Source of the DNA: Escherichia phage WPEC5
Strand: one strand, 5' to 3'
Length of the DNA stretch: 64,000 bases
Sequence record: PV654397.1
In this document: in pieces, positions 1,982-2,719 of the stretch
Numbering within the stretch: the stretch's first letter is position 1
Layout of the letters: every line of letters starts with the position of its first letter
Translations under genes and position numbers: made by a program
The notes under the pieces: model-generated
The model's database searches: none
What the model was told of the DNA's origin: nothing
What the model saw: only the letters and a program-made list of their open reading frames with translations

Positions 1982-2719
1982 ATGTTACCTTTTGCAAGAA
2001 TTGTTAAGTACGGGAATAAAATTGAATATAAGCCACATGGTGAACAATTAATCACGACAATAGGAACAACACAATTTACAGTTCCTGCTGGCGTTACCGA
2101 AATATCAGTATGTGTTATTTCGCCGGGTGGTCAACGCGGTGCTGGTGGCGGCTTATCGTGGCGTAATAATATTCCGGTTTCTGGTGGTGAGTACTTAAGT
2201 GTTTCTCTTACACATCCCAACACTACTACAGCAGTTGAAAACGGTTTATATCGTGGAACTGAAAAACTATGTGTTAGCTTCACTGGTGCATATACGGTTG
2301 GTGGACTAGGTGGAAAAGCTGCTAACGCTATTAATGATGGTGGTGGTAATGGTGGCAACACTGGTTTAAGTGGTGGTGCAGTCATTGGTGGTGGTGCTGG
2401 TGGCTACACTGGTAAAGGTGGTAACGGAAATGCAATCACTGGTGAAAATGGTGCTGGCGGTGGCGGTGGTGGTGGTGCATTCTATAATACCTCGTTCATT
2501 GGTACGGGTGGTGGTACTGGTATCATTGTTCAAGGTGCTAATGGTATTGGTGGTAGCTACGATGGTTCATATAATGGTGGTGCTGGTAGTGGTGGTGCTG
2601 GTAAGAGGTATGGTGGTGGTGGTAGTATATGGGATAATTCTTCTTATACGGCGGCTGGTGGTGGTGCTGTGCGAATAATATGGGGACGTGGGAGATATTA
2701 TCCTAACAATTCAGTCTAA
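1982..2719 (+). CDS. glycine-rich protein sharing the array N-terminal peptide
   Basis: N-term MLPFARIVKYGN; C-terminal two thirds extremely Gly-rich (GGGNGGNTGLSGG, GAGGGGGGGAF); same flanking cassette as propeller paralogs. Confidence 0.85.
   Translation: MLPFARIVKYGNKIEYKPHGEQLITTIGTTQFTVPAGVTEISVCVISPGGQRGAGGGLSWRNNIPVSGGEYLSVSLTHPNTTTAVENGLYRGTEKLCVSFTGAYTVGGLGGKAANAINDGGGNGGNTGLSGGAVIGGGAGGYTGKGGNGNAITGENGAGGGGGGGAFYNTSFIGTGGGTGIIVQGANGIGGSYDGSYNGGAGSGGAGKRYGGGGSIWDNSSYTAAGGGAVRIIWGRGRYYPNNSV

Follow-up and report, generated by a model that had tools for sequence, protein, structure and literature searches.

Escherichia phage WPEC5 carries an intact 245-residue open reading frame (ORF) with an ATG start at 1982..2719(+) of the 64,000-nucleotide stretch of sequence record PV654397.1 analyzed here, which we refer to as the window. 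The product of this glycine-rich gene is, with high probability, a real, virion-associated protein of the Gly_rich_2 fold, and we lean toward the reading that it is a binding module displayed on the virion by a common N-terminal anchor peptide. The first 12 codons (1982..2017) encode this peptide, MLPFARIVKYGN, a tag that begins with MLPF and is common to 10 window genes. The tagged gene array (719..12893, plus strand) comprises nine complete RCC1-like propeller genes together with the glycine-rich gene and is interrupted by one unrelated minus-strand ORF. By sequence comparison, the window phage is an Asteriusvirus, a 121Q/phAPEC6-like member of the Rak2-like jumbo coliphages with genomes of ~350 kb; region 1900-2800 shares 95-98% nucleotide identity with BF17, CMSTMSU, fEgEco12, SP27, 121Q, and phAPEC6. 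The orthologue of the ORF in 121Q is gene 243, and everywhere the annotation reads "hypothetical protein."

A glycine-rich domain of a known fold family

Glycine accounts for 28.6% of the whole protein and for 44% of residues 101-215. Structure prediction, which had been suggested as a check when the gene was first flagged, gives a confident single domain: the AlphaFold2 (AF2) model, built from an 82-sequence alignment, has a predicted local distance difference test (pLDDT) score of 93.1 and a predicted template modeling (pTM) score of 0.89. Strands are placed at residues 20-100 and 215-234, with a long glycine-rich stretch that is neither helix nor sheet between them, whereas residues 1-14 are left unplaced. 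The predicted architecture is a single tumor necrosis factor (TNF)-like beta-sandwich with a glycine-rich lattice domain of the Gly_rich_2 type (codons 20-245, 2039..2716), and the model displays the combination that defines the PF21722 fold, a TNF-like beta-sandwich plus a lattice of extended glycine-rich strands. A short linker, KIEYKPH (codons 13-19, 2018..2038), precedes the domain; most relatives align only from residue 13-30 on, and the first beta-strand begins at residue 20. The stop codon, as read from the ORF, occupies 2717..2719.

The protein belongs to a deep family. PHROG 4474 (unknown function) matches it at E 1.7e-66, a search of 5.8 billion proteins returns 189 relatives, mostly from phages and metagenomes and of ~245 residues, and an exhaustive phmmer search of 1.84 billion proteins yields 362 cluster representatives at E<=1e-3. 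Many of the 189 relatives carry a precomputed PF21722 (Gly_rich_2) assignment, and 23 of the 82 aligned homologues match the PF21722 profile; two relatives, P0038 (E 9.4e-16 to the query) and P0035 (E 3.7e-17), match PF21722 over positions 5-225 and 2-225 of its 226. Direct Pfam and NCBIfam scans of the 245-residue protein itself return nothing. The gene adds a member to an already known fold family. The original prediction of a body built of poly-Gly/Asn/Thr stretches instead of propeller blades was right in calling it glycine rich and not a propeller, but the wording undersells what is a defined Gly_rich_2 fold. A collagen-like or fibrous body, which was also proposed for checking, does not fit: G-X-Y runs are absent (no stretch of G-x-x exceeds two triplets), long tandem repeats are likewise missing (Tandem Repeats Finder reports short GGT-type repeats only), and the body is therefore not collagen-like; the model is a globular Gly_rich_2 domain.

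In longer relatives, the domain (query residues ~17-244) is C-terminal and follows RCC1, LamG, discoidin, or Ig domains. Among them, P0122 (1013 residues, N-terminus MFELL) has two RCC1-like propellers and then the glycine-rich domain, P0149 has LamG repeats and DUF7483 in front of it, P0125 a discoidin domain, and P0179 an Ig domain. The fusion of glycine-rich and propeller modules within one protein, as in P0122, indicates that the two modules are functionally linked. The genomic context of distant homologues is uninformative: in a Vequintavirinae-like contig the terminase/portal module is close by, in a contig of 216 kb a muramidase gene is next door, and in PVP-SE1 the surrounding genes are those of replication.

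Several characterized proteins resemble the predicted domain. The tail fiber gp24 of cyanophage Pam3 (PDB 7YPX) has TNF-like and glycine-rich distal domains at its receptor-recognizing end. Pam3 gp24 is, however, only 16% identical in sequence to the window protein and is not found by a sequence profile. It forms a trimer, is docked to the baseplate by alpha helices bundled at its N-terminus, and depends on the chaperone gp25, whereas in the window protein a 12-residue tag replaces the helical domain and no Tfa-like chaperone gene is adjacent. The fold is likewise shared with the tail-tip proteins gp33 (the "tail wing brush") and gp29 of mycobacteriophage Bxb1 (PDB 9D93), although Bxb1 is a siphophage of a Gram-positive-like host and lacks the MLPF tag. 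The glycine-rich domain of ALK/LTK is grouped with the phage and bacterial glycine-rich proteins of PF21722 but belongs to a eukaryotic receptor ectodomain that binds a cytokine. The Gp38 adhesins of Straboviridae (S16, T2, PP01), which have been compared with Pam3 gp24, are described as small monomeric receptor-binding proteins with glycine-rich motifs at the fiber end (PMC12032242); they resemble our proposal in being separate adhesins held through their N-terminal part.

One N-terminal tag on many cargos

All 10 tagged window genes start with MLPF[AV][RL][MIL][VF][KD]YGN. The nine propeller paralogs are 21-26% identical overall, and 7 of their 12 invariant columns are the tag residues M1, L2, P3, F4, Y10, G11, and N12. 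The glycine-rich protein does carry the family N-terminus, as first described: over residues 1-13, MLPFARIVKYGNK, it is 92% identical to the product of the next gene (2792..3922). What it has in common with its propeller neighbors is confined to the first 12-13 residues and to an upstream cassette of terminator, promoter, and ribosome-binding site (RBS). The label "paralog" thus applies to the first 12-13 codons and the cassette but not beyond about residue 25, where no match to the nine RCC1-like paralogs is found. In both AF2 models, those of the glycine-rich protein and of an RCC1 paralog, the pLDDT of the tag is low (about 50 or below); the tag is predicted to be a free extension and, according to these models, is part of neither cargo fold. 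The idea that the tag is a "velcro" strand closing the propeller finds no support, as the tag is unplaced in the RCC1 paralog model (whose pLDDT is only 69.5, from a 9-sequence alignment).

To survey other phages, we scanned IMG/VR with a degenerate DNA pattern for M-L/F-P-F-x5-Y-G-N. Because M, L/F, P, F, Y, G, and N are set by this pattern, their invariance among its matches is partly ascertainment; variants with Y-A-N (CBB_536, 548, and 549) were found via annotation only. The scan gives 70 matches, ~45 of which lie on contigs of 348-378 kb (including 121Q, CBB, GAP32, and metagenomic relatives) and are true ORF starts directly after a GGAG-type RBS. Outside the jumbo-phage contigs, the great majority of matches either are short ORFs that lack an RBS or fall within longer ORFs. 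Once the tag is stripped, the jumbo-phage and window proteins fall into at least nine BLAST cargo clusters, comprising RCC1-like and Kelch propellers, RCC1/Kelch fusions, Laminin_G_3/ConA-like lectin domains, the glycine-rich proteins, and several with no Pfam match. The tag-plus-cargo organization that the original prediction drew from a single gene therefore extends to at least nine cargo clusters across the Rak2-like jumbo phages.

The searchable literature holds no mention of the MLPF tag or of the shared N-terminus of these proteins, and we found nothing on the RCC1 array in the Sharanji, rV5, and CB7 papers. In the relevant phage papers, the propeller genes go under the names "DNA condensation" or "RCC1" proteins, and the glycine-rich gene is listed as hypothetical. 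Short N-terminal virion-targeting peptides and conserved anchors of receptor-binding proteins are known; the novelty here is a peptide of 12 residues that is retained and carried by many small lectin-like cargos.

Tagged proteins are mostly virion components

The clearest link between the tag and the particle comes from phage CBB, which encodes 11 tagged proteins (CBB_144, 247, 536, 537, and 548-554) with the consensus MLPFxxxxxY[G/A]N. Electrospray ionization tandem mass spectrometry (MS) of CBB particles identified 55 proteins (Table 4 of PMC5259590), and 9 of the 11 tagged proteins are among these 55 virion proteins of 554 ORFs (hypergeometric P = 2.4e-8). One of them, CBB_144, is the glycine-rich homologue of the window protein (36% identity, E 6e-18) and was detected in CBB virions by 5 unique peptides covering 34% of its sequence (PMC5259590). 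Six MS-positive CBB proteins are missing from GAP32, and the CBB authors regard them as candidates for the external tail "whiskers" (PMC5259590); all six are tagged. The pattern recurs in other phages. Six of the eight annotated RCC1 paralogs of phAPEC6, orthologous to the window array, are MS-positive (gp003, 005, 006, 007, 009, and 010), and GAP32 gp1, a single RCC1-like protein, is reported as MS-detected; in a contig attributed to GAP32, the sole RCC1-like ORF (385 residues) carries the tag. Proteins with the tag are mostly virion components.

The tag also stays on the mature virion protein. Virion peptides of CBB include tag residues in LFEYANVIIPPNYK (CBB_536, residues 7-20) and YANVIVEYATK (CBB_548, residues 10-20), and others begin just past the tag, namely IAPYQILYEMK (CBB_144, residues 14-24) and VVSNEYEINLDFSR (CBB_553, residues 15-28).

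Proposed display on a common anchor

We regard the tag as a probable common handle by which these proteins are attached to the virion. In the mechanism we propose, residues 1-12 would serve as a short, intrinsically unstructured anchor, followed by the 7-residue linker, and residues 20-245 would form the TNF-like beta-sandwich that projects a lattice of extended glycine-rich strands. The tag would dock every cargo onto one common virion site, for which the candidates are the unassigned fibrous protein at the capsid hexamer centers and the three rings of "hairy" sheath fibers of phAPEC6, as well as the whiskers of CBB. In this way, the virion would present a mixture of adhesin-like heads, and the cargo would bind host-surface ligands. 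Reversible adhesion to host or environmental surfaces appears to be the most economical reading, since all cargo domains are of ligand-binding types and the glycine-rich fold is that of receptor-recognizing fiber tips.

Short peptides of this kind have a well-known precedent with a different outcome. The capsid-targeting sequence of T4, found on IPI-III and Alt, is an N-terminal peptide of ~10 residues common to unrelated virion cargos. The prohead protease cuts it off, and the cargos that it marks lie inside the capsid. The window tag resembles it in being a short N-terminal peptide on several unrelated virion proteins, and the tagged proteins could by analogy be packaged inside the head, a possibility with which MS, which gives particle association only, is compatible. 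The phAPEC6 authors, moreover, suggest that the RCC1-like proteins may organize packaged DNA or the inner body (PMC7247149). We nevertheless consider internal packaging unlikely. The tag residues in mature CBB virion peptides mean that there is no T4-like prohead-protease removal on maturation, which sets the tag apart from the T4 sequence. By fold, the cargos are of lectin or adhesin types, unlike the internal cargos of T4, and the glycine-rich domain matches tail-fiber and tail-tip structures and is C-terminal in longer relatives. The tagging of all six CBB whisker candidates speaks against a location inside the head as well.

A second explanation, for which we see a similarly small chance, is that the tag is not the anchor itself but a recognition signal for an assembly chaperone or modifying enzyme that folds, oligomerizes, or covalently attaches the cargo. 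Glycine-rich fiber tips do need dedicated chaperones, as gp25 for gp24 in Pam3, and a tag that is predicted to be unstructured in both AF2 models fits a linear recognition motif. No conserved chaperone-like gene lies beside the tagged window genes, however, propeller, LamG, and glycine-rich folds are unlikely to share one folding chaperone, and the tag is kept in the virion.

Several observations weigh against the display reading or temper it. The causal role of the tag in incorporation is one that we infer, and the cargo domains could instead be what brings these proteins to the virion. MS of purified particles does not tell external from internal proteins, and the detection in virions covers the homologue CBB_144, not the Asteriusvirus glycine-rich protein, whose ORF is unannotated in phAPEC6. 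Two tagged CBB Kelch proteins, and gp001 and gp002 of phAPEC6, were not detected by MS. Retention of the tag is read from residues 7-12 and 10-12, as the tryptic peptides cannot assess residues 1-6, and low pLDDT over the tag does not prove disorder. On the structural side, the window protein falls below the Pfam gathering threshold for PF21722 and has no Pfam match even at E<=10; membership of that family is transitive and structural only. Searches of the PDB by sequence (phmmer and a family profile) return chance matches only, to an antibody light chain and a galectin, and the N-terminal helical bundle that trimerizes Pam3 gp24 is missing from the window protein.

The cassette and gene gain or loss

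The glycine-rich gene is bracketed by copies of one cassette. The first cassette element upstream is a terminator-like hairpin with an 11-pair stem and a T-run (1913..1939, plus strand), which ends the upstream RCC1 gene. It is followed by a promoter-like and RBS part (1940..1981, plus strand) in which TATAAT (1959-1964) and AGGAGG (1971-1976) are read from the sequence and the promoter function is putative. Downstream, another terminator-like hairpin (2725..2747, plus strand) starts the next copy, which continues at 2748..2827 (plus strand) with a promoter-like region and an RBS and runs into the tag codons of the RCC1-like gene that comes next. The cassette hairpin, GCCAGTAC..GTACTGGC with its T-run, recurs at 654, 2725, 3936, 8647, and 11015, and 18 terminator-like sites are found where shuffled sequences lead one to expect 6.1, a three-fold excess. 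Copies located 5' of 719, 1982, 2792, and 4001 are 86-93% identical, which bears out the claim that the gene has the same flanking cassette as its neighbors, in the form of hairpin/T-run, TATAAT, and AGGAGG.

A conserved 5' module had been proposed on these grounds, and both of its parts, tag and cassette, are real, but they do not travel as one. The cassette lies directly upstream of five tagged window genes, whereas the operonic genes at 5186, 6317, 7480, and 9872 lack it and are still tagged. In CBB, too, MLPFxxxxxY[G/A]N is found on dispersed genes in unrelated contexts, with CBB_144 beside nrdD and CBB_247 beside endonuclease VII. Since operonic and dispersed genes without the cassette carry the tag, the tag is independent of the DNA cassette. 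CBB_144 itself (8001-8765 of the CBB stretch compared) lies between the genes for the large subunit and the activating protein of the anaerobic ribonucleotide reductase, is far from the other tagged CBB genes, and is missing from the otherwise syntenic GAP32.

These data also bear on whether the shared N-terminus might have no function and simply hitchhike on a repeated DNA element homogenized by gene conversion. The 36 tag nucleotides are near-identical among window paralogs that have otherwise diverged widely, five genes have the cassette directly upstream, and recombination between cassettes is evident, all of which such hitchhiking would explain. Even so, we regard it as very improbable in light of the cassette-less operonic genes and the dispersed CBB genes that keep the tag. 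Codon usage at the invariant residues argues in the same direction: across genera, P3 is encoded by CCA, CCT, CCG, or CCC and G11 by GGG, GGA, or GGT, and third-position changes at invariant tag residues are all silent. This synonymous variety implies that the constraint acts on the peptide and not on the DNA.

The repeats nevertheless appear to matter for the evolution of the array. Of 35 related Asteriusvirus records, 17 contain the glycine-rich gene, which is thus an accessory gene. In SHEFM2K, from which it is absent, a single 119-bp cassette (1501-1619) separates two RCC1 genes. Cassette and tag codons together make ~100 bp of repeated homology on each side of the gene. Because of these flanking repeats, the presence of the gene in about half of the records, and the single cassette of SHEFM2K, gain and loss of the gene by recombination between the repeats is likely, and in the proposed mechanism cassette and tag codons would permit cargo genes in general to be gained or lost in this way. 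PeSL promoter/stem-loop cassettes flank accessory genes in T4-type phages. The two systems are alike in that a hairpin-plus-promoter repeat brackets a single accessory gene, with presence/absence polymorphism between copies. They differ in that the repeat here includes codons 1-12, where selection also acts on the protein; the putative promoter of the window cassette has a consensus-like TATAAT.

Integrity of the reading frame

The glycine-rich ORF is uninterrupted in 121Q, phAPEC6 (244 residues, minus one Gly), fEgEco12, Sharanji, and UE-S1, with a pairwise dN/dS of ~0.3-0.7 based on few substitutions. In phAPEC6 (MK817115), the intact 244-residue ORF at 7325-8059 has been left unannotated; the annotated gp004 (7716-8018) is a +1-frame poly-Val reading of the same DNA, and no gene is annotated at 5992-7716 of that record. 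The CMSTMSU record has a frameshift in the ORF. P0002, a 206-residue protein from a Logan contig, has its called start at an ATG inside the cassette (MNKGG..); its tag codons are deleted, part of the glycine-rich core is missing as well, and either decay of the copy or faulty assembly could account for this.

The original prediction named propeller blades in another frame as the finding that would overturn an unrelated domain. A six-frame tblastn search of the nine propeller paralogs against the gene, run with no low-complexity filter, aligns only the N-terminal 12-25 residues, in frame 1, with E>0.4 outside that N-terminus, and the 245-residue protein has no RCC1 match in Pfam; the body is indeed a domain unrelated to the propellers, with no blades in any frame. 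That the ORF is a frameshifted or decaying propeller remnant, or a spurious ORF in Gly-codon-rich DNA, has a practically negligible probability: although GGT-rich DNA yields long ORFs in other frames too and lesions occur in CMSTMSU and P0002, the CMSTMSU frameshift sits in a record flagged UNVERIFIED, and the absence of RCC1 similarity across frames, the deep homologous family with conserved motifs, the confident fold, the intact orthologues, and the homologue detected as a protein in virions refute it.

A possible parallel in Vequintavirinae

The same cargos occur in Vequintavirinae with a different N-terminus. Glycine-rich proteins of this group begin with MLEILTIG.., MIELLAISG.., or MFEMMLAT... 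In Cronobacter phage EspYZU08, a 387-residue RCC1-like protein (940-2103 of the stretch compared) starts with MFEMLLGGKAPISAGS and the glycine-rich protein (3953-4690) with MLEILTIGADAASKGS. In a Plesiomonas-associated contig, a 221-residue protein (8134-8799) that begins MNEMMIVSAQ.. is encoded ~1.2 kb 5' of the glycine-rich gene (10001-10744); it looks LamG-like by eye and has no Pfam match. Across this cargo set (glycine-rich, 387-residue RCC1-like, and 221-residue proteins), the N-terminus reads M-x-E-hydrophobic-hydrophobic and not MLPF..YGN. The fusion P0122, too, starts in this way (MFELL). These N-termini, which come from a few genes only, suggest that the lineage has a second tag of its own for the same kinds of cargo. 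Gene 179 of PVP-SE1 (100 residues; 5250-5552 of its stretch) matches residues 1-88 of the RCC1-like protein from EspYZU08 at 92% identity and, as the match stops there, looks like a truncated remnant.

Other features of the window

The minus-strand ORF that interrupts the tagged array (11041-11691) encodes 216 residues and matches PHROG 34359 (unknown function); the cassette hairpin beside it, at 11015-11033, is scored as a terminator in either orientation. Five further ORFs with PHROG matches lie at 25646-27157(-), 38182-38976(-), 40077-41045(-), 45820-46977(+), and 47022-47837(-), and none has an MLPF start; three are assigned as "virion structural protein," one as an RNA polymerase sigma factor, and one to an HNH endonuclease family. 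Four tRNA genes (Thr-TGT, Asn-GTT, Met-CAT, and Ser-GCT) are located at 52786-55549(-).

Implications for Rak2-like jumbo phages

Beyond the glycine-rich gene, we tentatively put forward a broader and more speculative model, in which MLPFxxxxxY[G/A]N would be a "plug-and-display" peptide: one docking site, on the hair-like appendages or at the capsid hexamer centers of Rak2-like jumbo phages, might take any carrier of the peptide, which would allow a combinatorial display of about a dozen lectin-like heads that are swapped through the cassette. The Vequintavirinae would possess a parallel system, with tag and docking site co-evolving and cargos moving between the two.

Display on a common tag, if correct, would explain what a block of some dozen genes does in each genome of Asteriusvirus and its jumbo-phage relatives, where the annotations are "DNA condensation," "RCC1," or "hypothetical," and it would name candidate components for the unexplained hairs of phAPEC6 and whiskers of CBB. 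It would also mean that a known receptor-binding fold is used in a new mounting, with a peptide tag in place of a fiber shaft, and that foreign proteins might be displayed on a very large virion by means of the 12-residue peptide. The glycine-rich gene itself would be a candidate determinant of host range or surface adhesion that varies among phages that are 95-98% identical.

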